Assembly (NCBI GenBank): GCA_031362405.1
Contig: JANLSO010000056.1
Location: 2,981-66,980 of the forward strand
Reading direction: 5' to 3'
DNA: 64,000 nucleotides
DNA from: Thermoleophilia bacterium
Lineage (GTDB): Bacteria > Actinomycetota > Thermoleophilia > Miltoncostaeales > Miltoncostaeaceae
Positions 29,811-55,974 of the stretch are shown here, piece after piece (the first letter of the stretch is position 1; each line of letters opens with the position of its first letter). The notes beneath the pieces are model-generated. The model was not told the DNA's origin and did no database searches. It saw only the letters and a list, made by a program, of their open reading frames with translations. Both the position numbers and the translations under genes were made by a program.

Positions 29811-32476
29811 CTACCACCGCAACCACCAAGCGGGTCTACGACTTCGCTGAAGGGTCGCGGGAGATGCGCGACCTGCTCGGTGGCAAGGGCGCCAACGTGG
29901 CAGAGATGACGCGCCTCGGCCTGCCGGTGCCCGCCGGCTTCACGATCACCACTGAGACCTGCATCGCCTACCTGGCCAGCGAGCACCAGTTCCCCGCCGG
30001 GCTCGACGACGAGGTATCCGAACACCTGGCCCGCTTGGAGACTCAGGCCGCAAAGAAGCTCGGCGACCCGGACAACCCCCTGCTGGTGTCGGTGCGCTCG
30101 GGTGCCCGGTTCTCAATGCCCGGAATGATGGACACCGTTCTGAACCTCGGCCTGAACGACCGCAGCGTCGAGGGCTTGGCCGCACGCACCGGCAACGCGC
30201 GGTTTGCCTACGACTCGTACCGACGTTTCATCCAGATGTACGGCGACGTGGTGTCGGAGGTCGACCGCGCCTATTTCGAGGGGGCGCTGACGACGTTGAA
30301 GGCCGAGCGTGGCGTCGAAACCGACGTAGAGCTGACCGCCAACGACCTCGAGGGTCTCGTCGAGACCTACCGCGGGATCTACCGCGAGCACAAAGGCGAC
30401 GATTTCCCCCAAGACCCACGCGCCCAGCTCGACGGCGCTGTCCGCGCAGTGTTCGAATCGTGGGACAACCGCCGCGCCCGCGACTATCGCCGACTCAACC
30501 GAATCCCCCACGACCTCGGTACCGCGGTCAACGTGCAGCAAATGGTCTTCGGCAACAGCGGCCCCCAGTCGGCGACCGGCGTCGCGTTCACCCGCAGTAA
30601 CGTCACCGGCGACCCGTCAGAGCCTTTCGGCGACTTCCTCGTCAACGCCCAGGGCGAGGACGTCGTCGCCGGAATTCGCACTCCCCTGCCGCTCACCGAG
30701 CTGCGCGACGTACTGCCCGACGCCTACGCCGCGCTGATCGAGACGATGGGAATGCTCGAGCGTACGTATCGCAACATGCAAGACGTCGAGTTCACGATCG
30801 AAGACGGCCGCCTGTTCATGCTGCAGACCCGCAACGGCAAGCGCAGCGCCCAGGCGATGGCGCGGATTGCCGTCGATCTCGTTGACGAGGGCCTGGTGAC
30901 GGCCGCCGATTCGATGTCGACGCTCGTCGACGCGCATCAGGTACGCCAGCTCCTGCTTCCTCAACTCGACCTCGCCAGGGCCCCGGAATCGGTGGCCTGC
31001 GGGGTCGCCGCATCGCCTGGCGCGGCGACCGGAGCGCTCGCCTTCACCGCCGACGATGCCGAAAGGCGGGCCCGTGACGGGGAGGCGGTGATCCTCGTGC
31101 GCGACGAGACGACGCCCGACGATTTCCACGGGATGGTCGCCGCCGAGGGCATCCTCACCGCCCATGGCGGCAAGACCAGCCACGCGGCGATCGTTGCCGT
31201 CGGAATGGGCACGCCCGCGGTCTGCGGGGTCGGGGCCCTGGAGATCGACGAGAAGAAGGGCATCCTGCGGGTGGCCGGGCAGCTGCTGACCCGCGGCGAC
31301 CAGATCACGATCGACGGCACCGGCGGACAGGTCTTCGTCGGCCACGCCCCGCTGGTGCCACCCGACCCGAACAACCCGTATCTCGTGCGGATCCTCGAAT
31401 GGTCGGACGAGTTCCGAAAGATCGTCGTCCGTGCCAACGCCGACACCCCCGACGACGCCGAACGGGCCCGCGCGTTCGGGGCCGAGGGAATCGGCCTGTG
31501 CCGCACCGAGCATATGTTCGCGGGTGACGATCGGCTGCCGATCGTGCGCGAGATGATCCTCGCCGACGACGAGGCAGATCGGCTCGCGTCGTTGGCAAAG
31601 CTGAGGGTCTTCCAGGAGCGCGATTTCGAGGGGATCTTCGCGGCGATGGCGGGCCTGCCGGTGACGATCCGACTGCTCGATCCGCCGCTGCACGAGTTCC
31701 TTCCCGACTACACCGAGCTTCGCCTTCGCGTCGAGCGCGCCCGGATCATCGGTGTGCCCGACATCGACGCCGACCTGCAGCTACCCCGCGTCGAGAAACT
31801 CAAAGAGGTCAACCCGATGCTCGGGACCCGCGGGTGCCGCCTCGGCATCGAGTGGCCCGACGTCTACCGGATGCAGGTCGCGGCGATCATGACCGCCGCC
31901 TGCCGAGTCAAAAAGGCATCAGGCGCGGCACCGATCGTGGAGATCATGATTCCGCTCGTTGGCTTCGAGGAGGAGCTGCGGATCATGCGCGAGCAGGTCG
32001 TCGACGTCTGCGAAACCGTCCTGGCAGAACAGGGCGAAAGCATCGACTACCTCGTCGGCACCATGATCGAGCTGCCGCGGGCGGCATTGGTCGCCGACAA
32101 GATCGCCGGCCACGCCGACTTCTTTTCGTTCGGCACGAACGACCTCACCCAGACCACGCTCGGTTTCTCGCGTGACGATGCGGAGAACAAGTTCCTCACC
32201 CACTACCTGCAGATGAACGTCATCCCCTCGAACCCGTTCGAGACGATCGATGTCGACGGAGTCGGGGCGCTGGTCGCGATGGCCACCGAGCTGTCGCGCG
32301 GCGTAAAGCCGGGCATCAAACTGGGGATCTGCGGCGAGCACGGTGGCGATCCCGACTCCGTGCGGTTCTTTGCCCAGACCGGGCTCGACTACGTGTCGTG
32401 CTCACCGTTCCGTGTGCAGACCGCGCGCATCGCAGGGGCCCAGGCCGCACTCGAGGCCGGTGGCTCGATGGCGTGA
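29807..32476 (+). CDS. ppdK: pyruvate, phosphate dikinase
   Basis: 889 aa. N-terminal VYDFAEGSREMRDLLGGKGANVAEM, phosphohistidine region GGKTSHAAIVA, and PEP-utilising C-terminus GICGEHGGDP. GTG overlaps the glyS stop. Confidence 0.95.
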   Translation: MTTTATTKRVYDFAEGSREMRDLLGGKGANVAEMTRLGLPVPAGFTITTETCIAYLASEHQFPAGLDDEVSEHLARLETQAAKKLGDPDNPLLVSVRSGARFSMPGMMDTVLNLGLNDRSVEGLAARTGNARFAYDSYRRFIQMYGDVVSEVDRAYFEGALTTLKAERGVETDVELTANDLEGLVETYRGIYREHKGDDFPQDPRAQLDGAVRAVFESWDNRRARDYRRLNRIPHDLGTAVNVQQMVFGNSGPQSATGVAFTRSNVTGDPSEPFGDFLVNAQGEDVVAGIRTPLPLTELRDVLPDAYAALIETMGMLERTYRNMQDVEFTIEDGRLFMLQTRNGKRSAQAMARIAVDLVDEGLVTAADSMSTLVDAHQVRQLLLPQLDLARAPESVACGVAASPGAATGALAFTADDAERRARDGEAVILVRDETTPDDFHGMVAAEGILTAHGGKTSHAAIVAVGMGTPAVCGVGALEIDEKKGILRVAGQLLTRGDQITIDGTGGQVFVGHAPLVPPDPNNPYLVRILEWSDEFRKIVVRANADTPDDAERARAFGAEGIGLCRTEHMFAGDDRLPIVREMILADDEADRLASLAKLRVFQERDFEGIFAAMAGLPVTIRLLDPPLHEFLPDYTELRLRVERARIIGVPDIDADLQLPRVEKLKEVNPMLGTRGCRLGIEWPDVYRMQVAAIMTAACRVKKASGAAPIVEIMIPLVGFEEELRIMREQVVDVCETVLAEQGESIDYLVGTMIELPRAALVADKIAGHADFFSFGTNDLTQTTLGFSRDDAENKFLTHYLQMNVIPSNPFETIDVDGVGALVAMATELSRGVKPGIKLGICGEHGGDPDSVRFFAQTGLDYVSCSPFRVQTARIAGAQAALEAGGSMA

Positions 32477-33447
32477 TCCGAAAGGATCTCGCCGCTCTCT
32501 GCCTTGCGGTCGTCGCGCTGGTCGCGGGGTGTTCGAGCGAGACCCCGCCCCCACCCGGCCCCGCGCCGGAGGGTGGCCGACCTTTCGCCGACTCCAGCTT
32601 CTGGAACACGCCGCTCGACGCCGACGCGCCGCTCGACCCGGCGTCCGACGCGATCACCGCTGATCTGCGGCGCCAGGTCGAGGCCTACGGTGCGTGGATG
32701 AACACCGACCGCTTCAGCACGCCGGTCTACGTCGTGCCCGACGATGCGCCGACGGTCGCGGTGTCGATGGGAATCCCGGATCCGAAACTCCAGTCACGCG
32801 TCGAGGCGGTGCCGATCCCGGAGACCGCGGTTCCGGCACGGGGTACCGATCGGCACCTGGTGATCTGGCAGCCGGGCCGCGACGTCATATGGGAGTTCTG
32901 GCAGGCCGCGCGCGCGCCGGGCGGGCCCTGGACGGCCCAGTGGGGCGGCAGGCTCGACCGGGTCTCGGCGAGTGACGGTGTCTTCGCCGCGCCGTACGGG
33001 GCGTCCGCGACGGGCCTGGCGATGATCGGAGGCATGGTCCTGCTCGACGAGGCCCGAGCGGGCCGTATCGACCACGCCATCGCGCTTGCCGTTCCCGAGG
33101 TGCGCGCCAACGTCATCCGGGAGCCGGCGCAACGCGGCGACGGCACATCCGATTCTTCGGCGTCTGTTCCCGAGGGCGCACGGTTTCGCCTCGACCCGGC
33201 GTTGGATCTCGACAGCCTGGACCTGCCGCCCTTCACCCGGATGCTCGCCGACGCCGCTCAGACGTACGGAATCGTGGTGCGCGACGTCTCGGGTGTCGTC
33301 AGCTTCTACGGTGAAGATCCTCTGCCGACCGGAAGCGGGGCCTTCGAGAACGCCTTCGGTGGGCTCCCCCCATCCGAGATCGCCGGAGCGTTCCCGTGGG
33401 AGCACCTGCAACTCCTCCCGCCGCTGGCCGACGTGAAGCGAGGATGA
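32473..33447 (+). CDS. lipoprotein of unknown function (paralog of 45216..46244)
   Basis: GTG 32473 overlaps the ppdK stop. Lipobox LVAGCS. Conserved blocks shared with the paralog: SFWN.PL, DRHLVIWQP, WEFW, GRIDHAIALAVPEVR, EGARFRLDPALD, YGIVVRD, FYGEDP. Confidence 0.7.
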   Translation: MIRKDLAALCLAVVALVAGCSSETPPPPGPAPEGGRPFADSSFWNTPLDADAPLDPASDAITADLRRQVEAYGAWMNTDRFSTPVYVVPDDAPTVAVSMGIPDPKLQSRVEAVPIPETAVPARGTDRHLVIWQPGRDVIWEFWQAARAPGGPWTAQWGGRLDRVSASDGVFAAPYGASATGLAMIGGMVLLDEARAGRIDHAIALAVPEVRANVIREPAQRGDGTSDSSASVPEGARFRLDPALDLDSLDLPPFTRMLADAAQTYGIVVRDVSGVVSFYGEDPLPTGSGAFENAFGGLPPSEIAGAFPWEHLQLLPPLADVKRG

Positions 33448-33678
33448 ACGGGCGATCTCAGGCGTGCGGGCGGTATACCTGGGCTTTCGCTCCGTCCGGT
33501 TCAAAGCCCAGGCTGCGGTAGACGCGGCCCGCGGCGTTGGTCGCCTCGGTCCTGTGCCCCAGCACCGCAAGGTCGGTTGCCCAACCGGGTGGGAGAGAAG
33601 ACATCCGCGAAAGGCTAGGCCGGCGCCGTCATCCAAGTAGGCAGAACGCGGGCTGCCCAGGGCCACCGCCGCCAGGAC

Positions 33679-33722
33679 GGGAAATGTCATAACCGGTGTC
33701 TGGCACCGGTTATGACATTTCC
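33679..33722. repeat. 44-nt palindrome (19-nt arms, short centre)
   Basis: GGAAATGTCATAACCGGTG-tctgg-CACCGGTTATGACATTTCC. Lies at the 3' end of the second DUF4143 pseudogene. Confidence 0.9.
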
Positions 33723-33744
33723 CCGGTGGCATGACGCACTGCGC

Positions 33745-34640
33745 CACAGGCTGGAGCGAGGAATAGCCCAGATGCGATCCCCCATCGGCGGCGTGTTTGC
33801 GCCTGGGTAAAGCACGAGCGCACGCGCAAAACGGTTGCCGAGCGCGGATTAAAACGTCGGAGCCCGGCCACCTGGCGGACTCTCGGTGTTGACGTGGCCT
33901 TGATCTCGATCCCGCGACCCGGCCGGTGGCGCGATCCTCGACGACGAGGTCGATGTCGTCGCCATCTCTGTCGCGGAAGTGCAACAGGTCGACCGCGATT
34001 TGGCGCCAGGTCACCTGCTTTCGTAGCTCGTTCACGACGAACATCTCCAGTAGTGCTTTGGCTATGGTCCCGGGGAGGTCGGTGGAAGATCGTGCGCTCC
34101 GACCCGCGTAGCCCGCGCCGCCAGCTCGGTATCGACCACATGGACTCCTGATCGCCGCTGGAGGTCGTCTCCCGTCGAAAGCTGGGCATTTCGCGCGATG
34201 CGACGTCGTCGATGTAACGGACGTCCGGGCTCGCCGGCGGGTTGAAACTCGTCGATGTCCCGCGGGGGATGGGAGGTGTCCAATAGGCAAAACGCTCATC
34301 AGGGAGTCCTCGAAGCTCGACGGTCGCCGTCCGCTGGACCGGCAGAACGCGGGCTGAGGGGTCCGGGGCAGAGGGTGGCCGCTCAAGTATTTTGGCCCTC
34401 GTGCCGAGAGACCTCGCGAGCGACGCACAACCGCAAACATGTGAAAGCGGTGGGAGATGACGCGAACCGACCAGGGTTCGAGCATGCCACTCGGGGATCG
34501 CCACGACTTCCAAGATTGGGTGGGCGAGGTGACGTCCGAGATACAGGTCCGCGAGCGCGGACCGAGCGGCACCGGCAGAGACCGCACCCAGGCTGACGGT
34601 CCCGAGCGGCATGAGCCGATCCCTCGGCGGTTGTTCTCCT
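33745..34640 (-). pseudogene. second DUF4143-type ATPase, heavily degraded
   Basis: Family pieces are scattered over all three minus frames: IDEFQ; VHVVDTELAA; ALLEMFVVNELRKQVTW..LLHFRDRDGDDIDLVVED; GIEIKATS; and LGNRFARALVLYPGANTPPMGDRIWAIPRSSLW. These compare with the equivalent blocks of 5218..6290. The recognisable pieces lie within 33760-34290; the upper boundary is uncertain. Confidence 0.55.
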
Positions 34641-34643
34641 GGC

Positions 34644-35639
34644 TCACCGGAGTGGCGAGCCGCTGACCTTCCGCTCTTTGATGCGTCCGACGAGATAACC
34701 CGCGGTAGCGCACGCGAGCCCCGCGACGATGGCGCCGGAGCGGAGTATCCCGTTTCGATCGCGCCCCGTGAGGCTGTCGCACACGCCGCGGGCGACGCCT
34801 CGAGGAAGCACCACCCGGGCGTGAGCCCGCTCCGACTCAAGCCCGTCACCACTTCCGACGAGCCGCGACAATTGCGCTTTTGAGAGGCCCTCGATGTAGC
34901 AGCGCGAGACGAAGTACGACCAGGTCGACCGAGCGGCGGGTACCTTGTGAGCCACACGGGCTGTGGGCTCGTAGAGCATCACCCCGCCACGGCGCTGACG
35001 CGCGCGAATCGAGAACTCCGTGTCGTCGTTTCCAAATGGCCGTGCACCGACCCGACCCGATTCGGATCGGAAGCCTCCGACCTCCGCGATGACATCTCGT
35101 CGGAACGACATGTTCGCGCCGATGAGGTTTCGTACCCCGGCGGTCTGTTCGGGCAGCCCGGTGTAGGTGCAGCCGACCACCCAGTTGAACTCGCCGGGAA
35201 AGAAGTTGGGGCGGCCGACCTGCCAAACCGGATCGATCCCACCCCCGGTGCCGACGACCCCGGGGTCGGTGTAGCCGACAACCAGCCGCGCGAGCCAGGT
35301 CGGCTCCGCGACGGCATCGTCGTCGAGGAACGCCACGATGTCCGAGCGGCAGTGCCCAGAACCGGTGTTGCGGGCACCGGACAGACCTCGGTCGCCGGCG
35401 TTGGGTACCGCCACGACGTGGGGAAGAGCGTCGCGCACGCGGTCGAGAAGGCCCGGATTGTGGTCAACGACCACGACCGTCTCGAGCGGGGCGAGGGTCT
35501 GCTCATCGACCGACGCCACCGCCTCGAGGAGATCGTTCCAGCGATCGTCCGTATACGCGCTGATGACCACCGAGATCGTTGATGGCACGCGCGCTCGGCC
35601 GACCTCTTCATCGACGGTGTCGAGGTGCGACAGACTCAC
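34644..35639 (-). CDS. family 2 glycosyltransferase
   Basis: ISVVISAYTDDRWNDLLEAVASV, LSGARNTG and FLDDDAV (DXD) motifs. GTG 35639 overlaps the stop of the upstream gene (GTGA), which I prefer over the listed start at 35720. Confidence 0.85.
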   Translation of the reverse strand: MSLSHLDTVDEEVGRARVPSTISVVISAYTDDRWNDLLEAVASVDEQTLAPLETVVVVDHNPGLLDRVRDALPHVVAVPNAGDRGLSGARNTGSGHCRSDIVAFLDDDAVAEPTWLARLVVGYTDPGVVGTGGGIDPVWQVGRPNFFPGEFNWVVGCTYTGLPEQTAGVRNLIGANMSFRRDVIAEVGGFRSESGRVGARPFGNDDTEFSIRARQRRGGVMLYEPTARVAHKVPAARSTWSYFVSRCYIEGLSKAQLSRLVGSGDGLESERAHARVVLPRGVARGVCDSLTGRDRNGILRSGAIVAGLACATAGYLVGRIKERKVSGSPLR

Positions 35640-36373
35640 CCGCCAACACTCGACTCGTTCAGTGCCCGACCGGAGATCGCCGGTGCGGACGCCAGCGGCT
35701 GGCGCGCGCGCTCGCGCCACAAGGTGCGCAAGACGCGAAGCCCGTCACGAAACGTATTCAGGTTGCTCTGGCCGTGGATCCGGCAGTCTTCGAAGCTCGG
35801 CACCTCGACGACCACCAGGCCCGCCCGAGCGATGCGGACGTTGATCAACGTCTCGACCTCAAAGCCGCTGCAATCGACGTCCATGTGCGGCAGGCAGCCC
35901 GCCCAGAAAGCGTTGTAGCCGTAGCAGAGGTCCGAGTACGTCGATCCGTAGACCCGGTTTGCGACCCGGGTCAGCACCCAGTTACCGGCCTTGCGCATCA
36001 GCGTTATGTCCGCGCTACCGCCACCGGCCATGAACCGAGAGCCCTTGGCGAAGTCGGCCCCCGCGCGCAGCGCCGCCACGTAGGTCGCAATCTCCTCGGG
36101 CCGCTGAGAGCCGTCGGCGTCGATCATGACGATGATGTCGCCTCGGCAGGCCGCAAAGCCCGCCGCCAAGGCGTCGCCCTTGCCGCGGCCCGGTTGACCC
36201 AGAATCCGAACCTCCGGATACAGATCACGTGCCACCTCGACAGTTCCGTCGGTCGATGCGCCGTCCACGAGAACGATTTCGTAGATGTCGTCGGGCAGGC
36301 GCGCGAAGACGTGCGGGAGGTTCTTCGCCTCGTTCAACGTGGGGATGACAACGCTCACACGTGGCGCAAGCAT
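35636..36373 (-). CDS. polyprenyl-phosphate sugar synthase-like GT2 (Dpm1/Ppm1-like)
   Basis: VSVVIPTLNEAKNL, VLVDGASTDGT, GKGDAL, IVMIDADGS, and GSRF..GG..YGYNAF match dolichyl/polyprenyl-phosphate glycosyltransferases. ATG 36373. Confidence 0.75.
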   Translation of the reverse strand: MLAPRVSVVIPTLNEAKNLPHVFARLPDDIYEIVLVDGASTDGTVEVARDLYPEVRILGQPGRGKGDALAAGFAACRGDIIVMIDADGSQRPEEIATYVAALRAGADFAKGSRFMAGGGSADITLMRKAGNWVLTRVANRVYGSTYSDLCYGYNAFWAGCLPHMDVDCSGFEVETLINVRIARAGLVVVEVPSFEDCRIHGQSNLNTFRDGLRVLRTLWRERARQPLASAPAISGRALNESSVGG

Positions 36374-36785
36374 CGTCTGCTCAGGATGGGGCCAGGGCGA
36401 TCTCGTGTCGTCCCGTCGTGCGACCATTATTCGTCTCCCTCGGGCACCGGTGATTACTGCCGCAACCGCAAGAATCTGACTCTTCGACCCTTCGCGCCTC
36501 GCTATTGCACCCTGAGAGTCTCGGCCGCGCCCCCCCCGTTCGGTCAGGGAGGCATCCCTCACATGTGGACAACCCCCGTTCTTCACGTAAAAAAAACATG
36601 AGATCAGCGGCTGCCGCTCGGGGCGGGGGCGCTAAGGTCCCTCTCGCCCGCCAGGGCCGGTGCGGCCAGCGGGTAGCCACGTCCGGCGCCGGCGGTCATG
36701 CCCGAGGCGGGCCGGACGCGCGAGCTGTGCCCGGTTAGGCCGGGCCTTCGCGAGGCCGCCGTAACGCGACCGAGGTGTCACCTAC

Positions 36786-38048
36786 ATGGCTGGTGGTTCT
36801 TCAGCGCGCCCCCGCCGCGACCCCGGTCGGCCCACACGGCTCACGGCGCCCGTGACCGTCCGACAGATCAACGCTGGCGAGCCGGCGGCTGAGATCGCGC
36901 TGGGCCACGCTCGCGATGGAAGCCCCTACCGAGGCCTGGCCGCCGTGATCACCCGGGACGGCCGACCTGTCGGGTTTGTCACCCTTCCCGCCTCAGACGG
37001 GCGAGTGTCCGCTGAGCGTCTGCGACAGGCGATCGAGGATCTCACGCCGACCACCACGACCCTCCCGCATCGCAGCGTTTCGCGACCGGCCGGCACGGTC
37101 GTCGTCACGACCTGCAACTCGCCGACGTCACTCATCCGCACCATCGATTCCATTGTCCCCGGCCTTGCCGTCGACGACCGCGTGTTGGTAGTTGAAAATC
37201 GCCCGGACGGTTCCGTGGTGAAGGCTGCGCTTCACGAAGCTTTCGGCGGTGATCCCCGGATCGGGTACATCGAGGAACGGCGTCCCGGGCTCGGCCGTGC
37301 CCGCAACGCCGCCCTTGCGGTCTGCCAAACCGAGTTCATCGCGTTTACCGACGACGATGTGATTGTCGACCCGGCCTGGAGCCAGTGTCTGTTCGACACG
37401 CTCTGGAGCGATGCTGCGACCGCGGTCGTGACCGGGCTGATCGTTCCGCTTTCGCTGGAGACCCCATCGCAGATCACGCTCGAGGAGTTCGCCGGCTTTG
37501 CGAAGGGCTTTGAGCGGCGCCGCTTCGATATGGCCGATCGGCCGAAGGATCCACTGTTTCCGTTCGCTGCCGGGCAGTTCGGTTCGGGGGCGAACATTGC
37601 GTGCCGCGTATCCATGCTCCGGGGTATCGGCGGGTACGACGACGCGCTCGGCACCGGCACGCCTGCGCGCGGGGGAGAGGACCTCGACCTGTTTACGAGA
37701 GCCCTGCTGGCGGGGCACGCGTTGATCTACGAGCCGGCCGCGTTCGTCTGGCACGAGCACCCCGATACGCCGAGGCGGTTGCGCCGCCAGACCTTCGCGT
37801 ACGGGGCGGCGCTGTCGGCAACCATCACCAAGCAGCTCGTGGTCGGACAGCATCGACGTGAGCTGCTGCGGCGCGTCCCGGCCGGCCTTCGTTACCTCGC
37901 GAGCCCCGATTCGGTGAAGAACGAACGAAAGAGCGCCTCCTATCCACGCCACCTGACGGTTCTCGAATTGGCAGGGATGCTCGTCGGGCCCGTCGGCTAC
38001 CTGCGCAGCCGGGCCGCGACCCGAAGGGCGAACCGCGCGTGCGCCTGA
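36786..38048 (+). CDS. family 2 glycosyltransferase with N-terminal extension
   Basis: VVVTTCNSPTSLIRTIDSI, GLGRARNAA and FTDDDVIVDPAW (DXD) motifs. About 110-residue N-terminal region of unknown function. Confidence 0.85.
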   Translation: MAGGSSARPRRDPGRPTRLTAPVTVRQINAGEPAAEIALGHARDGSPYRGLAAVITRDGRPVGFVTLPASDGRVSAERLRQAIEDLTPTTTTLPHRSVSRPAGTVVVTTCNSPTSLIRTIDSIVPGLAVDDRVLVVENRPDGSVVKAALHEAFGGDPRIGYIEERRPGLGRARNAALAVCQTEFIAFTDDDVIVDPAWSQCLFDTLWSDAATAVVTGLIVPLSLETPSQITLEEFAGFAKGFERRRFDMADRPKDPLFPFAAGQFGSGANIACRVSMLRGIGGYDDALGTGTPARGGEDLDLFTRALLAGHALIYEPAAFVWHEHPDTPRRLRRQTFAYGAALSATITKQLVVGQHRRELLRRVPAGLRYLASPDSVKNERKSASYPRHLTVLELAGMLVGPVGYLRSRAATRRANRACA

Positions 38049-39796
38049 TTCCTCGGGGGACAGACTCCGCGACCCACTTCCTGCGCAGTGCCTACAGCCT
38101 CGTCATCAACACGGCCGCCACGGGTCTGCTCGGGGTGGCTTTCTGGATCGCGGCCGCCCGCCTTTTCCCCATCGAGACCGTGGGTCGCGACAGCGTTTTG
38201 ATCGTCACGATGATGACGCTCTCGACCATCTGCCAGTTCAACATGGTCAACCTGTTCGTGCGCTTTCTTCCCCAGCAGACCCGGCCCGCCCGGCTGATCC
38301 TGATCGGATACGGGGTGAGTTGCGGGCTCGCAATCGTTCTCGGCTCGGGCGCGATGCTCCTGATGCCGCGCGTATCCGATGACCTGGCCGGGCTGGGATT
38401 CGATTCCGGCCTTGGTTGGCTGTGGGTCGCCAGCCTGGCCCTTTGGGGCATCTTCTGCCTTCAGGACGCCGCGCTGACCGGCTTGCGTCAGGCGCCGTGG
38501 ATTCCCGTGGAGAACACCGCTTTCGGCCTCGCAAAACTCCTTTGCCTGCCGCTGTTTTTGGCCGTCGGCGCGACGAACGGAATCTTCCTGGCCTGGGTGC
38601 TGCCCATGGCGCTCCTGCTGATTCCGGTCAACGCGATCGTGTTCGGGCGGGCCACGTCCCGGCACGTACCCGCCGCGCGAGAGGAGGGGGACCCCGGGCT
38701 CCGTAGCCCGGAGTTGCGCAGGTACCTGCTTCTCGACTACACCGCGGCCACGTTCATCCAGGGGCTCTACACCGTGCTCCCCCTCCTTGTGCTGGCGATC
38801 CTGGGGAGCGCGAACAACGCATATTTCTGGATTCCGTTCTCCCTGGTCACGGCGATCGACATGATGAGCCTGAGCGTCGCGACATCGATGACCGTCGAGG
38901 GCGCCTACGCGCAATCGGAACTCGCTCAGCTGGCGCGGACCGCCGTCCGGCGCTTCGCAGTGTTCGTGCTCGGCGCGGCGGCGGTCCTCATCATCGCGGC
39001 ACCGCTCGTGCTCGCGCCGTTCGGCGCGGAGTACGTCGCCCGCGGCAGCGGCCCCCTTCGCGTGCTGGCCATCGGCGTGGTGTGCCACGGGGTGATCGAG
39101 TTGTTCGTGGGGCTGGCCAGGGTGCGGCGCCACGGTCGCGGTCTGGCGCTCTTGGGGATCGCCCGATGCGTACTCGCCCTGCTCTTGTGCGGCCTGCTCG
39201 GCGCGCGGTTCGGCGTGATGGGCGTGGCGGTCGGGTGGTCGACGATGAGCGTCATCGTGGCGCTTGCCGTGCTGCCCTCGGTTGTGCGCGTGCTCTCCGT
39301 TGACGGCTCGAAGGATGCGCCACCGGTGCGCCTCGCGACCGCCCGCGCCCGAGCCGCCGCCGGCCGCGTATGGGCGCGCAGTGGGCCGTATGAGCGTGTT
39401 GCCCTTGTCTCGAGCGCTCTTGGCCTGATCGCCGCCAGCGGCATCCTCCCCTCGGTTCCTGCATTTCTGCTCCTTCTCGGTTTCGTCATGACCGCCCCGG
39501 GTGCCGTCGCATTGGTGCTCGTCTGGCGACTCGGCACGCCACCGGAGTCGACGATCGGTGTTGTCGCCGGCATTGGCCTTGGCGTGCTGGTGGTGCTCGC
39601 GCAGTCGATGCTCTGGCTCGGGGCCTGGTACACGCGCGGCTGGTTGGGTCTCCTTGCGCTCGCGTGTTTGGCGATCCTCGCCACCCGGGCACTGTCGCGG
39701 CCGCTCTGGCCGGCAGGAGGCACGCTGGATCTTGCGGCCCGCCTCCGTCGCGTGGTCCCTTTCACCTCGCGCACGGACGTCGAGGGCAACCAATGA
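38039..39796 (+). CDS. polysaccharide biosynthesis/export membrane protein (Wzx/MOP flippase-like)
   Basis: 585 aa and almost entirely hydrophobic helices (12 or more). The N-terminal SAYSLVINTAATGLLGVAFWIAAARLF is typical of the polysaccharide biosynthesis protein family. Overlaps neighbours on both sides. Confidence 0.65.
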   Translation: MRLIPRGTDSATHFLRSAYSLVINTAATGLLGVAFWIAAARLFPIETVGRDSVLIVTMMTLSTICQFNMVNLFVRFLPQQTRPARLILIGYGVSCGLAIVLGSGAMLLMPRVSDDLAGLGFDSGLGWLWVASLALWGIFCLQDAALTGLRQAPWIPVENTAFGLAKLLCLPLFLAVGATNGIFLAWVLPMALLLIPVNAIVFGRATSRHVPAAREEGDPGLRSPELRRYLLLDYTAATFIQGLYTVLPLLVLAILGSANNAYFWIPFSLVTAIDMMSLSVATSMTVEGAYAQSELAQLARTAVRRFAVFVLGAAAVLIIAAPLVLAPFGAEYVARGSGPLRVLAIGVVCHGVIELFVGLARVRRHGRGLALLGIARCVLALLLCGLLGARFGVMGVAVGWSTMSVIVALAVLPSVVRVLSVDGSKDAPPVRLATARARAAAGRVWARSGPYERVALVSSALGLIAASGILPSVPAFLLLLGFVMTAPGAVALVLVWRLGTPPESTIGVVAGIGLGVLVVLAQSMLWLGAWYTRGWLGLLALACLAILATRALSRPLWPAGGTLDLAARLRRVVPFTSRTDVEGNQ

Positions 39797-41661
39797 CCAC
39801 CGCTGCAGTCCTCGCGCGGACCGTCCCGCCGCGCGACTCGCCGGCGGCTCGCGTCGTTGCCCATGCCGCGGTCGTCATCGCCGCGACCGTGCTGTGGCTG
39901 GTCGCCCTTTCGCAGACCGAACTCGAGCAGATGCGCGGCCTGGGATTGATCGATGCCCTTCCTCCCACCTACTTCGCGGCAGTCCTCTTGGCGGTTTCGG
40001 GCGCGATCGCCGCGTTCATCGGCCGATCGGCGATGCCACGCGCGTTCTTCGTCCACCTCGGAGTGCTGATCGTCTTCCTGCATGGGACCACCGCGGTGCT
40101 CTATGACGAACCGCGCTACCCGTGGGTCTACAAGCATCTCGGGGTCATCGACTACATCCAGATGCACGGCGGCGTCGACCGCTCCATCGACATCTACAAC
40201 AACTGGCCGGGCTTCTTCGCCAGCAATGCTCTGCTGTCGGGAGCGACGGGTATCGAGCCTTCCGTCTACGCGCCGTGGGCACAGGTCTTTTTCAGCGCTC
40301 TCACCGTCGCGGCGACGCTTTTCGCCATCCGGCCCCTGGTCGACGACCGCCGCCAGCAGATGCTGGTCGTGCTGCTCGTCGTCCTCGGCGATTGGATCGG
40401 TCAGAACTACCTCGCCCCCCAAGCCTTGGCATTTCCGTTGATGCTCGTCGTCCTTGGCTTCTGGCTGCGGCTTGCCCCCGGCGAGGGCGGCAGCAGTCTC
40501 GCGCGGGCGACGACGGGGGCCTGGGTTCGCATCAGCGCCCGAACCCGAGCCCCTCGGCGCGTCGATGCGCGGCCGGCCGCGACTGATCACCAACGTATCG
40601 GCACCGGGGTGGCGCTCGCGCTGGCCGCCGCCCCGGCGCTGGCGGTGGTCCTCACACACCAGCTTTCGCCCATCGTGCTCATCGTGTCCACCGTGATGCT
40701 CGCGCTCGTCACCGGCCGGCGCCTGGGTATCGCGATCGCCGGGCTGGTTGCCGCAGAGGTCGTCTGGATCGCCTTGGCATGGCCCTACCTGAACAACCGC
40801 ATCTCATTGGTCGAGTTCGGCGGAGTTCCCACCGCTGCCCCGGTCACGACCGCTCCGTCCTTACCCCACGCGGACCTCACCGCCCTGTCTGCGCGTATGG
40901 TCGTCGCCGTCATGGGCCTGCTCGTCATCGCCGGGTGCCTGCGCCGGCTGCGCCACGGCAAGGAAGTCGCCGCGCCGCTCGCGCTGATCGCCGCGCCCCT
41001 GCTGATCGTGCCGCTCCAGTCCTATGGGGGAGAGGGTGGTCTGCGGGCCTACCTGTTCGCCCTGCCGTGGCTCGCCGTCCTCGCGTCTGACGCCCTCATC
41101 GGGATCGACCTGTGGTTGCGCCCTGCCGGCGAGCGCGCGACAACGCGCGCGCGGATCGCCGGAGCCATCGGGCTCGGGGCGGCGGTCAGCGTGGTTTCGG
41201 CGCTTACCCTGGTGGCCTACTTCGGCCTCGAGTTGGAGAACTACGTGGGCTCGGAAGACGTGCGCGCCAGCCGCTGGTTCGAGCAGACGGCGCCCGACGG
41301 TGCCGTGCTCGCCTTCCTGGCGCCCGGGTTTCCCGAGCGTATCGCCGGGCGCTACGCCGAGCTCGCGGTGAGTGCCTCATCGTTCAGCCCGTCGTTGACC
41401 GAGGACCCGTACACGCGGAATCGACTTCTTCGACGATCGACGCGGATGGAGGCCATCCGCGGGTTGATGAACGTCCTGCCGCAACGCGATCGCTACCTCG
41501 CGATCGGGCCGAGCCAGACTCGGCCGGTCGAGTTGCACGGCGTCCTGCCACGCGATGTCACTGCAGCGATCCCCCGCGAGCTGCGGGCGGCCCGCGATTT
41601 CCTGGTCGTCTACGACCGAGGCGGAACCGTGATCTTCCGCTACATCCCGGGGCGCGCATGA
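39793..41661 (+). CDS. large polytopic membrane protein, possible GT-C-type glycosyltransferase or polymerase
   Basis: ATG 39793 overlaps the previous stop (ATGA). Multi-helix N-terminal two thirds with YDEPRYPWVYKH and IYNNWPGFF loop motifs, then a soluble C-terminal region. No family confidently recognised. Confidence 0.45.
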   Translation: MTTAAVLARTVPPRDSPAARVVAHAAVVIAATVLWLVALSQTELEQMRGLGLIDALPPTYFAAVLLAVSGAIAAFIGRSAMPRAFFVHLGVLIVFLHGTTAVLYDEPRYPWVYKHLGVIDYIQMHGGVDRSIDIYNNWPGFFASNALLSGATGIEPSVYAPWAQVFFSALTVAATLFAIRPLVDDRRQQMLVVLLVVLGDWIGQNYLAPQALAFPLMLVVLGFWLRLAPGEGGSSLARATTGAWVRISARTRAPRRVDARPAATDHQRIGTGVALALAAAPALAVVLTHQLSPIVLIVSTVMLALVTGRRLGIAIAGLVAAEVVWIALAWPYLNNRISLVEFGGVPTAAPVTTAPSLPHADLTALSARMVVAVMGLLVIAGCLRRLRHGKEVAAPLALIAAPLLIVPLQSYGGEGGLRAYLFALPWLAVLASDALIGIDLWLRPAGERATTRARIAGAIGLGAAVSVVSALTLVAYFGLELENYVGSEDVRASRWFEQTAPDGAVLAFLAPGFPERIAGRYAELAVSASSFSPSLTEDPYTRNRLLRRSTRMEAIRGLMNVLPQRDRYLAIGPSQTRPVELHGVLPRDVTAAIPRELRAARDFLVVYDRGGTVIFRYIPGRA

Positions 41662-41722
41662 TCTCGCGCGAACGTTGCGCCCCTACGTCCATTGTTCGGT
41701 ATGCGGTGCGAGGGGGTCGACG

Positions 41723-42793
41723 ATGAAGGTGCGAGTGATCCGTCCCGACGAGCTGAGCGCCTCGGATATCGAGAGCTGGCGCGCAATCCAGACACGGGCG
41801 GGACTCAATAACCCGTTCTTGTCGCCCGAGTTCGCCCAGGCCGTCGGCCGCCACCGTGCCGACGCGCGCGTCGGTGTGATGGACGACGGCAGCGGGGCGG
41901 TGGGCTTCTTCGCTTTCGAGAAACGTCGATGGCGGATCGGCAAGGCGATCGGAGCAGGCGTCAACGACTGCCAGGCCGTGGTGGTCGATCCCGGTCTCGA
42001 GTGGAGCGCCGCCGAGCTCGTCACGGCCTGCGACCTCGTCGTATGGGAATACAGCCATCTGATGGCCGAGCAACCGCAGTTCGTGCCCTATCACGCTGCT
42101 GTGGTGCCGTCGCCGATCATGGATCTCACCGACGGCTTCGAGGCTTTTTGCAAAGCGGTCAGCGAGAATTCCAAGTCGTGGATTTCAAAGGCCCGCCGCG
42201 GCGTCCGCCGCCTCGAGCCGAGGTTCGGGCCGGTGCGGCTCGAGTACGACGATTCCGATCCGGCCGCCCACCGCACGGTGCTCGAGTGGAAATCGAATCA
42301 GTACCGCCGCACCGGTCGACCCGACCCGATCACGCGCCCGTGGGTATCGGCGCTCCTGGCCGATCTGTTGGTGGGAGGTACGGATACTTTCCGGTGCCTC
42401 TGCACGTCTCTCTACTCGGGCGAACGGCTTGTTGCCGGGCAGATAAACCTCCATTCGCCGCGGGTCGTGGCCGGGTGGATCATTGCGTACGACCCCGAGG
42501 TCGCAAGCGCCGGTGCGGGCAACCTCTCCGACCTCATGATGGCCGAGGCCGCCGCTGAGCGCGGCGTCGACTACATCGACCTGGGAAAAGGCGACAACTT
42601 CAAGAAGGGATCCCTCGGCACCCGTGAGCTGCGGGTCGCCGAGGGGTGGGTGGAGCGCCGAAGCATGGTCACGGTGGCACGCCGGGTGACGCGAACGCCC
42701 GTGCGCGCGACGCATGACTTCATTGTTCGCAATCCCCCCGTGCGGGCCGCGGTGAAGCGCGGCCTTCGTGTGGTGGGAGGTCTTCGACGATGA
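41723..42793 (+). CDS. CelD/BcsL-like GNAT acyltransferase (Acetyltransf_6-type)
   Basis: SWRAIQTRAGLNNPFLSPEFAQAV N-terminus and YIDLGKGDNFKK C-terminal pattern, as in cellulose-biosynthesis CelD-like proteins. Confidence 0.6.
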   Translation: MKVRVIRPDELSASDIESWRAIQTRAGLNNPFLSPEFAQAVGRHRADARVGVMDDGSGAVGFFAFEKRRWRIGKAIGAGVNDCQAVVVDPGLEWSAAELVTACDLVVWEYSHLMAEQPQFVPYHAAVVPSPIMDLTDGFEAFCKAVSENSKSWISKARRGVRRLEPRFGPVRLEYDDSDPAAHRTVLEWKSNQYRRTGRPDPITRPWVSALLADLLVGGTDTFRCLCTSLYSGERLVAGQINLHSPRVVAGWIIAYDPEVASAGAGNLSDLMMAEAAAERGVDYIDLGKGDNFKKGSLGTRELRVAEGWVERRSMVTVARRVTRTPVRATHDFIVRNPPVRAAVKRGLRVVGGLRR

Positions 42794-42997
42794 CCCCGCC
42801 GATCGGACGATCGATGCGTCTGAAGCACCCCCGATCGGGGGTTGTCGCGCCACACAGACCCCCCCGATACTCGCCTCCCATTCGGCTCAGGGACGACGAC
42901 GAGCCCTCCGACAACGCAGAGTGATCGTGACGCCCCTTCGAGATACCCATGACGAACCTACGCGGCGCAATCGACCACATCGCGCTGAGGGCTCGCG

Positions 42998-43879
42998 GTG
43001 AGCCCCGCCCTGCCCACGGACAGAGCACGAACAGCGATCCCTGTGGTGGTTTTCCATTCGGTTCGCGACTGCTCAGGAGAACCGATCTGGACCCTGCCAC
43101 GGGAAACGTTTCGGCGGCACATCCGCGCGATCGCCGAGAGTGGTCGCACCAGCATCAGTTTCGGCGATCTCGCCGATGGCCTCGCCGGTCGCCAGCCCAT
43201 GGCCCAGCATTCGGTCGTGGTGACCTTCGACGACGGATTTGCCGACAACCTCGATGCCGTGGCCATCTGCGATGAATACCGGCTGCACGTAAGCGCCTTC
43301 ATCACGACCGACTACCTCGGTCGTGACGCCATGCTCACCCCCGCGCAAGCCCGCGAGCTGGCGGCCCAGGCGAACGTCGAGGTGGGATCCCACACCGTCA
43401 GCCATCGTCGTCTCGACGAGCTGACACGCAGCGAGATCAACCGGGAGCTGCGCGACAGTCGAGAGCGCCTCGAGGACATTCTCTCGGGCCCGGTGTCGAC
43501 GTTGGCGTATCCGTACGGCAACTACGACGAGCGGGTCAAGCGGATCGCGGCGGCGGCCGGGTACCGAGGTGCCGCTGCCGTACGAATGGCGCTTTCGCAT
43601 CCCGCCGACGACCCCTTTGCGGTCGCCCGCCACCTCATCAGTACCCGTACCACCGACGCCGAGTTGGCCGACATCCTCGCGGGCCGGGGTCGGCTGGCCG
43701 CGCGCCACGAGCGACTCGTGACGCGCGGCTACCGCTGGGCACGCCGGGGCCGCGCGATCGCCTGGCAGGGGACCCGGCACGGGCCCATCGCGAAGCGGCT
43801 AGCCGGAGGGCCCGATGGTCGTTCCGCCGACCTCGGCGCCCGCGGGGCTCGACCCGAACAGGGAGCGGAAGAGCACTGA
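42998..43879 (+). CDS. polysaccharide deacetylase (NodB/CE4)
   Basis: VVTFDDGFADN (motif 1), VGSHTVSHRRL (motif 2) and LAYPYGNYD (motif 3). Confidence 0.88.
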   Translation: MSPALPTDRARTAIPVVVFHSVRDCSGEPIWTLPRETFRRHIRAIAESGRTSISFGDLADGLAGRQPMAQHSVVVTFDDGFADNLDAVAICDEYRLHVSAFITTDYLGRDAMLTPAQARELAAQANVEVGSHTVSHRRLDELTRSEINRELRDSRERLEDILSGPVSTLAYPYGNYDERVKRIAAAAGYRGAAAVRMALSHPADDPFAVARHLISTRTTDAELADILAGRGRLAARHERLVTRGYRWARRGRAIAWQGTRHGPIAKRLAGGPDGRSADLGARGARPEQGAEEH

Positions 43880-45130
43880 GGATTGCGGATACGTGTCGTC
43901 GTCGATGCGGTGACGACCGAGTTCGGACTGCTGCTTGTTGAAGTACACCATCCATTCCACGGCGTGAGCGCGGGCGAAATCGGCCATGCCCTGAATGAAG
44001 ATCGGGTTGTCGCCTCCACCCGCTCGTGCTCGTGGCACCAGGCCGAACTCCGGGATGACCAGGGGTCGGTCGTAGCGAGCGGCAAGGTCGCCGTACCACT
44101 CGAGCCCGTGGTCTCCGGTCAGCAGATGGTTCCAACACCTCGTCTGGCGGGCGACGATGTCTGCCGCAACGGCGTGGTCGGGTATCGGATAGGTGTCCGG
44201 CAGGAAGCAGATGTCGTAAACGTCGACCCCGATGGCATCGACCACGTCGGCCCCGGGCCAGGCGCGTTCCGCCGGCCAGTTGTCGGGGTCGACGGGTCCC
44301 AGTGCGGGGTTCCACACGAAGGTGAAGTGGGCCCCGGGTACGGAGCGCATGGTTGTGACGATCCGACGGTAGTAGGCCTTCCATGCGTCCGGATCTGACC
44401 GGGCGCTCCACGGCTGCCAGTCGCCGGAGAATTCCCAGCCGGGTCGTAGGACCGCCCTCGCCTGCCCGCCCGCGACGAGCCGTTCGCCGAGCTCGCGGAA
44501 GTAGCCGTCGTAGGCGCCGGATGCGCCTTCCTGAAGCGTCCCGCCCTGCTCGCGGGGAATCATCACCAGCGAGTAGGCGATTCGGGCGCCCACATTGCGC
44601 CACGCATCGACAAGCCACCAGGGGTTGGCGATGGCCCTCCAACGCAGCTCTTCGAGGCCGTCCGAGGCAACCACCGGCCGGCGGCCGAGCCACCCGGCGA
44701 ACCGCTCGAATCCGTCGCGGTCTCCCGGCCCGATGTAGACCCCGATCGGGATGCGAGCGTTGGAGGTTGGCCTGGCGACGGCGGCCGCAGGGGGCAGCGC
44801 AGGAGGGTCAGCGACGAGGAGAGCCGCGGCGCCGGCGACGCAGATGATCGCGATCACGGCCCCAACGATGACGCGCGCACGAGGTGGGCGACGTGTCGCC
44901 AGCGCCGGCGACCCGCCCAATCCCCGTCGACCGACATCGCGCGTGTCCTGCCCGGGAGGATCGGCAACCCGTGATTCCCGAGCCGCGCGTGGGGGGAGCC
45001 TCGCCCTCACGCCCACACTCTGTTCGAAGGAAGGTCTGCCGACATGCGCCCAGGTGCGCGTTGTGGTCGCATCACGCTCCCCCTTGCCGATCGGCCGTCG
45101 TACATCTGCGGGGTGCTCCACCAGGACCAT
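43799..45130 (-). CDS. membrane-anchored glycoside hydrolase, GH26-like
   Basis: TM anchor VIVGAVIAIICVAGAAALLV followed by LRPGWEFSGDWQPW, DAIGVDVYD and LVIPEFG motifs resembling GH26-type (mannanase-like) TIM-barrel hydrolases. The start is uncertain (ATG 45130 chosen; listed ORF reaches 45424). Confidence 0.6.
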   Translation of the reverse strand: MVLVEHPADVRRPIGKGERDATTTRTWAHVGRPSFEQSVGVRARLPPRAARESRVADPPGQDTRDVGRRGLGGSPALATRRPPRARVIVGAVIAIICVAGAAALLVADPPALPPAAAVARPTSNARIPIGVYIGPGDRDGFERFAGWLGRRPVVASDGLEELRWRAIANPWWLVDAWRNVGARIAYSLVMIPREQGGTLQEGASGAYDGYFRELGERLVAGGQARAVLRPGWEFSGDWQPWSARSDPDAWKAYYRRIVTTMRSVPGAHFTFVWNPALGPVDPDNWPAERAWPGADVVDAIGVDVYDICFLPDTYPIPDHAVAADIVARQTRCWNHLLTGDHGLEWYGDLAARYDRPLVIPEFGLVPRARAGGGDNPIFIQGMADFARAHAVEWMVYFNKQQSELGRHRIDDDTYPQSSVLFRSLFGSSPAGAEVGGTTIGPSG

Positions 45131-45215
45131 TCCTGAGGTCGACAGCAGGGGCGGCGGCGCGGAGTGCCGTCGTCGCGTAGTCGTCGGTGCCAGCGGCCAA
45201 TGAACGGCGCGATGT

Positions 45216-46244
45216 CTATCGACGCCCGGCCGGAGCGATCCGCACGTCGTAGTCCCAGTTCTGCCAGCAGCAGAACGGGCGGGGCGGAAGCATCTGAAGG
45301 CGGTCCCACGGGAAGGATTCGATAACGCCCTCGCGGTCGGCATCACCGATGAGCGCGGTAAAGCGGTCAACGCCCACCCCGCGGGGATCCTCTCCGTAGA
45401 AGGCCACCGCGCCTGCGTGATCACGGACGACGATGCCGTACCGCTGGGCGGCTTTCGCCATCATCCGCGCAAGAGGATGCAGGCCCAGGCCGTCGATGTC
45501 GAGAGCGGGGTCGAGCCGAAAACGTGCCCCTTCGAGCGGGGCGCTGGGGTCAGACGATGATCCGTCGGTTCGCGTTGCCGGCAACGTCAGTGTCTCGCGC
45601 CTCACCTCGGGCACCGCAAGCGCCAGAACGTGGTCGATACGGCCCTTGCGAAGGTCGCGCGCGGTGACGAGCCCTCCCACCGCCGGCAGGCCCGATGCAG
45701 TCGCCCCGTACGGCGCCTCGATGATTCCCGCCGAACGTGAGACCTGGGGGATCTTCGCTCCGTGGCGGGCTTCGGGGCCGTGAGGGCCGTTCTGGAAAAC
45801 CCAGAACTCCCACATCGTGTCGCTGCTCGGCTGCCAGATCACGATGTGAGCGTCGGTCCCGTCGGCTGGCCTGGCGTTCGGTGGCACGGGCGCCTTGGCC
45901 CACCTGTTCGGGCTGTCGGCACGTGGTGATCCACCGTCGCTGTCGCGCACAACGACCTGCGGTACGTTCGGCCCCACGGTGAAGACCGGGATGCTGAACT
46001 TCTCGATGTTCATCCACGGACCGCCGTAGGCGTCTTTTTGGCGAATCAACTCCGCAACGACGGCCCCGGACGTCGGGGCGATGGTCTGATTCGTGGCGAG
46101 AGGTCGGTTCCAGAAGCTCGTTGGGGAAAACCATTGCGGTTCAACGACAGGTGTCTTCGTCGCGGTTGCGCCGCCTGCCACCGACAACGCGACGAGGAGC
46201 GCGAGGCTCAGGCCGGCGGTCAGCCATCGAAAGAGTATGCGCAT
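45216..46244 (-). CDS. secreted protein of unknown function (paralog of 32473..33447)
   Basis: Signal peptide MRILFRWLTAGLSLALLVALSVAGG. Shares SFWN.PL, DAHIVIWQP, WEFW, GRIDHVLALAVPEVR, EGARFRLDPALD, YGIVVRD and FYGEDP with the ppdK-linked lipoprotein. Confidence 0.7.
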   Translation of the reverse strand: MRILFRWLTAGLSLALLVALSVAGGATATKTPVVEPQWFSPTSFWNRPLATNQTIAPTSGAVVAELIRQKDAYGGPWMNIEKFSIPVFTVGPNVPQVVVRDSDGGSPRADSPNRWAKAPVPPNARPADGTDAHIVIWQPSSDTMWEFWVFQNGPHGPEARHGAKIPQVSRSAGIIEAPYGATASGLPAVGGLVTARDLRKGRIDHVLALAVPEVRRETLTLPATRTDGSSSDPSAPLEGARFRLDPALDIDGLGLHPLARMMAKAAQRYGIVVRDHAGAVAFYGEDPRGVGVDRFTALIGDADREGVIESFPWDRLQMLPPRPFCCWQNWDYDVRIAPAGRR

Positions 46245-46282: not shown

Positions 46283-47341
46283 ATGACCGTTCGGTACGGT
46301 CTCGCATCACCAGTGGCAACCTCAAATACAGCCCCCGACACTCCACTCATCGCCGTCATCACGCCCGTGTTCCGCGGTGCGCGCCATCTCGCGGACTGCC
46401 TGGAGGCGGTCCGTCGGCAGGAGCATCAGAACTGGTGCCACATCGTCGTCGACAACGCGAGTGACGACGACACCCGCGCTATCGCCGCGACGGCCGCAGC
46501 CGAGGATGCACGGGTACAACTGGTCACCCACGACCTCTACGTCCCGATGCTCGACAACTGGAACCGGGCGCTCCTCGAATGCCCCGCCGACGCGGAGTAC
46601 GTGATGCAGGTCGGCGCGGATGACCTCATCGCCGACGACTGCTTCACCCGGATGCTCGATGTGGGCCTGCAGTACCCCTCGGCCCAGCTGATCGCGGCGT
46701 ACCGCAGTGATGGCAGCATCACTTTGCCGGCCGCGTTCGACGAGAGCATCGAGCTCATCGCCGGAGTCGAGGTGGCCAGGGAAGTCTTGCTTGGTGGCAC
46801 CGACGTGATCGGCTCGCCGAGCAACGTGATGATGCGAGGCGATGCGATCCCGATCGGCACACCGATGTACGACGGTCGCGCGTGGCCACCCGGTATGACC
46901 AACGCCCCGGCCCGCTGGGCGGTCGACAAGGAGCCGTTCCTGCGCATGCTCGACGGGGGTTACGTTGCCTTCACCCACGGTGTGCTGACCATGTCACGCC
47001 AAGATGACGGCGGCGCAACATCGGTGACCGAAGATCTGCGGACCCACTGCGCCGGTGACTTGGAGCTCCTTCTGCGGTTCGCGGAACGTTTCTTGACCCG
47101 GGCGGAGCTTCGCCGGCGCGCCCGGGTTCTCGCGGTCCGCTATTCGGCGATCATTGCCAACCAGGCCCTTCGCCGCGGGCGGCGCCACGATGAGCGCTTC
47201 GTGGAGTACCACTCCCGTGCGCTTGCCCACCTGGCTCCGGTGCTGCGCGAGCAGGGCGCGCCGGAGGCGGCGACCGCGTTGCGTGCCGCGCGGCGAATGC
47301 TGGTCGCGCGGTCAGCCGCGCCAGGCCAAACGGTGACGTAG
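46283..47341 (+). CDS. family 2 glycosyltransferase
   Basis: IAVITPVFRGARHLADCLEAVRRQ, VVDNASDDDT and VGADDL (DXD-like) motifs. Confidence 0.8.
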   Translation: MTVRYGLASPVATSNTAPDTPLIAVITPVFRGARHLADCLEAVRRQEHQNWCHIVVDNASDDDTRAIAATAAAEDARVQLVTHDLYVPMLDNWNRALLECPADAEYVMQVGADDLIADDCFTRMLDVGLQYPSAQLIAAYRSDGSITLPAAFDESIELIAGVEVAREVLLGGTDVIGSPSNVMMRGDAIPIGTPMYDGRAWPPGMTNAPARWAVDKEPFLRMLDGGYVAFTHGVLTMSRQDDGGATSVTEDLRTHCAGDLELLLRFAERFLTRAELRRRARVLAVRYSAIIANQALRRGRRHDERFVEYHSRALAHLAPVLREQGAPEAATALRAARRMLVARSAAPGQTVT

Positions 47342-49653: not shown

Positions 49654-49654
49654 G

Positions 49655-50605: not shown

Positions 50606-50689
50606 CGGCACGGAGGCAGTTTGCTTTACCGAAGGGGACGAACTGCCGATGACGCCGTCGATGCAGCAATATGGAAATCTAGCGAACCG

Positions 50690-55898: not shown

Positions 55899-55974
55899 CG
55901 GCTCTCTGGTGGGGCTCGGTTGGTCGCGGGGATCGCGGCGGGCCGGACGCTACCGATTCGAGAGGCCTGACACC

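Follow-up and report, generated by a model that had tools for sequence, protein, structure and literature searches.

A 64,000-nucleotide window of the genome of a Thermoleophilia bacterium (contig JANLSO010000056.1, positions 2,981–66,980) contains two genes, P1 and P2, which encode exported proteins of one family. P2 is positioned inside a Wzx/Wzy-type polysaccharide locus, and P1 lies at the left border of the same locus (Table 1). The family is real, large, and uncharacterised, and its confidently predicted fold is without a solved relative. P1 and P2 are 49% identical over 284 residues with five gaps (BLASTP, E = 6e-87). The similarity spans the entire mature protein and is not of low complexity, which confirms paralogy far beyond chance. 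The initial annotation of the window, made from its letters, had described a pair of paralogous secreted proteins, and all eight of the shared sequence blocks that it quoted are found in both. The N-terminus of P1, VIRKDLAALCLAVVALVAGCSS, contains a positively charged start, a hydrophobic core, the lipobox V-A-G-C, and a proline-rich linker, and P2 has a signal segment. The start codon of P1 is GTG, with the sequence GGTGG 10 nucleotides upstream. P2, for which no strand had been given, is encoded on the minus strand. Its open frame extends to position 46346; the ATG at 46244 gives a protein of 342 residues, and an independent metagenome assembly calls the identical 342-residue gene. The guanine-cytosine (GC) content at third codon positions is 0.84 in P1 and 0.78 in P2, compared with 0.86 in ppdK, the gene that precedes P1.

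Four copies of the domain are encoded in the genome: the two in the window, one on contig C173, and a distant one on contig C92. None of the four has a match in Pfam-A or NCBIfam, where the listed matches are at chance level (E = 0.24–0.74), and a search of PDB sequences with phmmer and a 40-sequence profile returned nothing below E = 1.7. P1 and P2 are negative for glycoside hydrolase family 26 (GH26, PF02156), for which only a neighbouring gene is positive, and match no LytR-CpsA-Psr (LCP) protein (PF03816). The literature on actinophage tail domains and on the exopolysaccharides (EPS) of Thermoleophilia yielded nothing on the family. The initial statement that no domain could be recognised thus agrees with the database searches, which place neither P1 nor P2 in an already characterised family. 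The AlphaFold2 model of P1, calculated from a 40-sequence alignment, has a predicted local distance difference test score (pLDDT) of 89.8 and a predicted template-modelling score (pTM) of 0.84. According to DSSP, the model is a mixed α+β domain with short antiparallel strands. The pLDDT of the model of the C92 protein, the most distant paralog in the genome, is 82.2. Comparison of the models with the PDB using Foldseek, a check that had been proposed with the initial annotation, identified no relative of either: the best E values are 1.9 for P1 and 0.38 for the C92 protein, with template-modelling (TM) scores below 0.2, and no right-handed parallel β-helix is among the matches. The matches to YopJ/PopP2, Lem17, and DUF820 nucleases were rejected, because they have E values of 0.4–8 and TM scores of about 0.1, and the family lacks a conserved cysteine.

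A word-indexed search returned at least 454 relatives. Among the matches listed, all are annotated as hypothetical and none has a Pfam domain; the sole relative with an organism name is from Thermoleophilaceae. A HMMER search of 1.84 billion cluster representatives identified 9,524 clusters, defined at 50% identity, with E ≤ 1e-3 and 1,832 with E ≤ 1e-30. A broad profile matches 73 of 301 genomes (24%) sampled evenly across the phylum. These counts provide the survey of phylogenetic distribution that had been suggested initially. In a search of 25 genomes of the same family, close copies of the type present in the window (E of about 1e-100 or better, referred to as the window type) were identified in the genome itself and in three other genera, and a further genus has one intermediate match. 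The number of window-type copies per genome in this family is usually two to six, and their distribution is patchy. The best 76 loci in a collection of species representatives are all from metagenome-assembled genomes, most of which are labelled as Solirubrobacterales, Solirubrobacteraceae, Thermoleophilaceae, or Thermoleophilia, and a minority only as Actinomycetes or Actinomycetota. The close type is found mainly in soil Thermoleophilia.

The two paralogs outside the window differ in organization. The 489-residue C173 paralog (L003 937–2406) is composed of an unannotated N-terminal domain of about 150 residues, a (Thr-Pro)n linker, and the conserved domain; no recognisable glycan locus is present within the 3.9 kb examined around it. 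The C92 paralog (contig C92 9189–9896; L004 1375–2346, minus strand) is 27–30% identical over about 240 residues. It represents a highly conserved subfamily, with 65–79% identity among the listed top matches and at least 8,000 candidates passing the threshold. The C92 paralog contains the motifs DRH, WTSADAAGLP, HALRFT, and YGMILADNGS.

Two or three copies of the domain are present in 46 of 80 loci, and the window-type copies are 45–55% identical to each other. The nearest relative of a copy is encoded in another genome and not alongside it in 75 of 95 cases, and pairs of copies correspond across related genomes (for example, L028 and L072, or L048 and L053). Therefore, judging from these sequence relationships, the duplicates within loci are old and maintained. 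Two further genera of this family, G008 and G014, have two-copy loci that are syntenic. A deep division of the family into two types, with one of each per locus, was rejected, because no bipartition separates more than 7 of 43 pairs.

A hydrophobic N-terminal segment is present in 221 of 265 members, and a lipobox-like motif in 53 of 265. Longer members additionally contain Big_3_5 (5–20 copies), Big_13, PKD, Laminin_G_3 lectin domains, RTX repeats, or DUF4082, and the domain is usually the sole candidate catalytic module in such fusion proteins. Residues W44, D126, E141, H201, P218-A219, G235, R239, G266, and D271 (P1 numbering) are invariant or nearly so in homologs down to about 25% identity, including phage copies. 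Within the window type, conservation extends to H128, R221, and D223. The conserved residues are retained in each of the three close copies that the genome encodes. Tryptophans are conserved at positions 44, 132, 140, 143, 153, and 309.

The neighbourhood of the family shows that the association with glycan genes extends beyond the window. All four homologs on long contigs are in loci with polysaccharide-synthesis genes: glycosyltransferases (GTs) are encoded in all four, Wzy together with Wzz in three, a flippase in two, and sulfotransferases in three, with genes for 3′-phosphoadenosine 5′-phosphosulfate (PAPS) reductase in place of sulfotransferases in the fourth. Hidden Markov models (HMMs) built from annotated locus genes were run on 76 fetched loci, 52 of which have full flanks, and on random 21-kb windows of the genome itself as a control. 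A gene for Wzy, Wzz, or a flippase is located within 10 kb of the homolog in 34 of the 52 loci (65%), compared with 5.8% of random windows, and one for Wzy, Wzz, a flippase, or a GT of family GT2 or GT4 in 48 (92%), compared with 19.8%; this contrast is somewhat inflated, because a single genome served as the control and the loci themselves supplied the training sequences of the HMMs, but it is still large. The enrichment of the window-type subfamily in Wzy-type loci is about 11-fold. The nearest neighbours are GT2, GT4, Wzz, and NTP_transf_5 genes, without a constant partner. A single conserved partner gene was thus rejected: the neighbours are generic EPS genes.

Sulfotransferase genes are within 10 kb of the homolog in 15 of the 52 loci with full flanks (29%), compared with 2.3% of random windows; these loci, and L016, L017, and L019, carry one to three such genes, sometimes with a PAPS reductase or a CysN-like gene. 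The presence of sulfotransferase genes in many Wzy-type loci with homologs therefore suggests that soil Solirubrobacterales have sulfated surface polysaccharides. The locus in the window is without sulfotransferase genes. The NTP_transf_5 gene recurs in 31 of 76 loci, and in two of them (L018 12205–14459 and L019 16942–19206) it directly follows an unannotated gene for about 350 residues. A lasso-peptide-like set of genes (PqqD, Transglut_core3, HPr-kinase-like, and asparagine synthase) adjoins one homolog-bearing locus (L016 19222–21215).

Within the window, the TGA stop codon of ppdK and the GTG start codon of P1 overlap as GTGA, as described initially. This overlap is real in this genome and lineage-specific. 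Among the 80 loci, 79 of them besides the window, ppdK is near a copy of the family only in the window and in one relative, G014 (counted twice, as L014 and L092), where it is 8 kb from the nearest copy and there is no overlap. As the adjacency is not conserved in relatives, translational coupling of P1 to ppdK is lineage-specific, and the initial description of P1 as fused to the ppdK operon reflects a local accident. A functional link of P1 to ppdK or glyS was rejected, because only one relative has the adjacency. The most suitable reading of P1 is that of a gene at the edge of the glycan locus. The segment between P1 and the first GT gene lacks clear codon periodicity (GC of about 0.62–0.69 at the three codon positions). 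It probably represents a gene that has decayed, and it marks where the ppdK–P1 unit meets the glycan locus. The GH26-like gene next to P2 was correctly recognised in the initial annotation; however, GH26 is a neighbour of family members in none of the 76 loci. The start of this gene is probably at 44857 and not at 45130 or 45424, because the 358 nucleotides that separate it from P2 (44858–45215) have no coding periodicity in the frame of the long open reading frame (ORF; 0.68/0.76/0.67), and because the independent assembly calls the same start.

Table 1 Genes and segments of the ppdK–P1 unit and the adjoining glycan locus (positions in the 64,000-nucleotide window)
Feature	Position	Strand	Description
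ppdK (pyruvate phosphate dikinase)	29807–32476	+	stop codon overlaps P1 start
P1	32473–33447	+	324-residue lipoprotein: lipobox LVAGC, Pro-rich linker, then ~285-residue domain; member of uncharacterised family
P1-to-first-GT junction	33450–34640		~1.2 kb; weak DUF4143 remnant (E = 3e-6)
Left half of glycan locus	34644–43879		three GT2, Acetyltransf_6 acyltransferase, NodB polysaccharide deacetylase, two large ORFs
Two large unassigned ORFs	38039–39796 and 39664–41661		without Pfam match
GH26-like gene (PF02156)	43799–44857	-	directly downstream of P2, same strand, 358-nucleotide gap
P2	45216–46244	-	342-residue P1 paralog; N-terminal signal or anchor segment
Right half of glycan locus	46283–60162		GTs, Wzy_C, Wzz-like, flippase region
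GT2	46283–47341	+	
GT2	47312–48223	-	
Wzy_C polymerase	48220–49653	-	
Wzz-like gene	49655–50488	-	
GT4, GT2, epimerase, DUF4910	beyond Wzz-like gene, before flippase		
Flippase	58603–60162	+	

The domain is shared with proteins of phage tails. In the PHROGs database, residues 36–277 of P1 align to positions 194–426 of the 702 positions of phrog_17388, annotated as minor tail protein (E = 4.2e-13). P2 matches the same profile with E = 2.7e-9, the two proteins together cover only its positions 194–427, and a scan of the genome itself agrees. A Foldseek search of predicted viral structures (BFVD) identified five strong matches, including the minor tail protein of Gordonia phage Guillaume (E = 1.8e-20, query TM score 0.69) and a 760-residue phage protein annotated as a parallel β-helix repeat. 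Microcystis phage Mae-JY09 encodes a 365-residue homolog two genes past the tape-measure gene. A viral contig from IMG/VR (L097 3615–8846) contains three tandem copies of 707, 616, and 412 residues, each with a Sec-type signal peptide; a GIY-YIG-like gene and genes for virion structural proteins follow immediately downstream. Phages thus deploy the domain at the tips of their tails, a site of proteins that bind or break down polymers of the host envelope. In tblastn searches of a phage collection, P1 and the IMG/VR homolog had no match and the distant paralog matched only one Microcystis phage; a homology search with a viral homolog as the query returned only itself.

P1 and P2 are homologous to the central domain of the phrog_17388 proteins, such as that of Guillaume with 749 residues, which is likewise without an assigned function. 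However, the phage proteins are 700–1000 residues long and have N- and C-terminal regions that P1 and P2 lack. P1 and P2 have neither the full-length architecture of these proteins nor a location in a phage tail module, and consist only of an export signal and the domain. There are no phage genes around them; the locus is a chromosomal glycan locus. The analysis establishes that the family is linked both to Wzy-type glycan loci and to phage tails.

There is about an even chance that the domain of P1 and P2 is an enzyme, either hydrolase or lyase, that cleaves the glycan polymer of its own locus. The arguments for cleavage are the export of the proteins, the invariant carboxylates, histidine, and arginine amid conserved tryptophans, the fast diversification in glycan loci, the immunoglobulin (Ig)-like and lectin partners, and the use of the domain in phage tails. 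The domain would act outside the cytoplasm on the surface polysaccharide that the cell produces by the Wzx/Wzy pathway, where it would trim, release, or turn over polysaccharide chains, and in phages the tail-tip version of the domain would serve for cutting or gripping the corresponding surface glycan of the host. D126, E141, H201, R239, and D271 are candidate active-site residues, and the putative substrate is the polymer of the locus itself. The invariant arginine with aspartate and glutamate would suit metal-assisted β-elimination, whereas two carboxylates would suit hydrolysis. A glycan-active family had been proposed initially: the glycan link and the lack of a characterised family agree with that proposal, and its hydrolase or lyase activity is inferred from context, charged residues, and phage homology. 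The more extensive proposal has somewhat less than an even chance of being correct. According to it, the domain defines a new family of carbohydrate-active enzymes with an unseen fold, common to Wzy-type loci of soil Actinomycetota and to phage tail tips, and the diverged copies have distinct specificities that track a variable polymer, which is sulfated in some loci.

Several observations weigh against glycan cleavage. No similarity to a fold of glycoside hydrolases, polysaccharide lyases, or carbohydrate esterases was found. A homolog of the C92 type on a 3.1-Mb contig is outside any glycan locus, and the contrast in locus context is subject to the inflation described above. One bacterial member is fused to Peptidase_M23, a cell-wall enzyme. 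The phage homolog annotated as a parallel β-helix repeat already has the usual fold of depolymerases, and the domain might act otherwise there. P2 already adjoins the GH26-like gene, next to which a second glycanase might seem redundant.

The fusion to Peptidase_M23 would fit a cell-wall hydrolase directed at peptidoglycan or a secondary wall polymer, which would serve phages for wall penetration at the tail tip and cells for wall remodelling, with some copies merely located near glycan loci. Phage tail-tip proteins often contain wall-degrading domains, and the homolog of Mae-JY09 is encoded just past the tape-measure gene. Furthermore, the C92-type subfamily is housekeeping-like, as it retains its high identity across many genomes outside EPS loci. 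Nevertheless, activity on the wall is unlikely, because it does not account for the enrichment of the window type in Wzy-type loci, and because the identity of only 45–55% between copies indicates quick diversification, like that of glycan-specific genes and unlike that of peptidoglycan enzymes. In addition, no peptidoglycan-hydrolase fold in the PDB resembles the models.

Binding without catalysis is an improbable explanation as well. The strict retention of the Asp, Glu, His, Arg, and Asp residues across thousands of clusters with about 25% identity is more typical of an active site or metal site than of a surface for binding, and about 285 residues is large for a carbohydrate-binding module. 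By contrast, a module that holds, organizes, or anchors the surface polymer, and that binds receptors in phage tails, would be consistent with the many conserved tryptophans, with the adhesin-like position of the domain at the tip of long stalks of Ig-like repeats, with its occurrence alongside an existing β-helix in a phage protein, and with the lack of a recognisable catalytic fold.

The domain could also modify the polymer outside the cytoplasm without cleaving its backbone. It would then be an esterase, an epimerase, a sulfatase-like enzyme, or a transferase for attachment of the polymer to the wall. Tailoring genes abound in the loci and include acetyltransferases, deacetylases, and methyltransferases besides the sulfotransferases in 15 of 52 loci, and the invariant His/Asp/Glu/Arg set would suit such chemistry too. 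However, the probability of this function is low, because no tailoring gene is a constant partner of the family and epimerisation or ligation would suit a role in phage tails less well than cleavage or binding. An LCP-like wall-ligase role in particular is unlikely, because two bona fide LCP-family genes elsewhere in the genome already fill the role of wall attachment.

Glycan cleavage within a biosynthesis locus has precedents. PslG (GH39), BcsZ (GH8), PelA (GH166), AlgL (polysaccharide lyase family PL5), and ExoK (GH16) are extracytoplasmic glycanases encoded within polysaccharide synthesis operons, which cleave nascent or released polymer and belong to Pfam and CAZy families with solved structures. 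By contrast, P1 and P2 match none of these families by HMM or by fold. The GH26-like neighbour resembles P2 in operon direction, in being membrane-anchored or secreted, and in its relation to glycans; however, the two are unrelated in sequence. WceF of Pantoea stewartii, encoded in the gene cluster for the EPS stewartan, is a glycanase whose fold resembles that of phage tailspikes (PMC7949094). Like P1 and P2, it is secreted, has its gene within a locus for EPS biosynthesis, has relatives in phage tails, and has been proposed to trim the polymer of its own cell. However, WceF is a trimer of right-handed parallel β-helices, whereas the models of P1 and the C92 paralog match neither a β-helix nor any other fold in the PDB, and no sequence relation of WceF to P1 and P2 was found. 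By analogy, it is plausible that P1 and P2 belong to a functional kind that is already known, that of glycan-processing proteins of EPS loci with phage relatives, with a predicted fold that is unrelated to the known ones and unsolved.

A family of 9,524 clusters has no entry in Pfam, NCBIfam, or the PDB, although its fold is predicted with confidence. If its domain is a true glycanase, it would represent a new CAZy family and fold, and it would annotate a class of tail proteins of actinophages and cyanophages. It could become a tool for cutting otherwise intractable polysaccharides of soil bacteria, some of which are probably sulfated. It would also provide a role for a gene that recurs in the polysaccharide loci of abundant soil Thermoleophilia. 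If the domain instead binds glycans or cuts the wall, it would still fill a gap in the understanding of how monoderm actinobacteria handle polymers made by Wzy.

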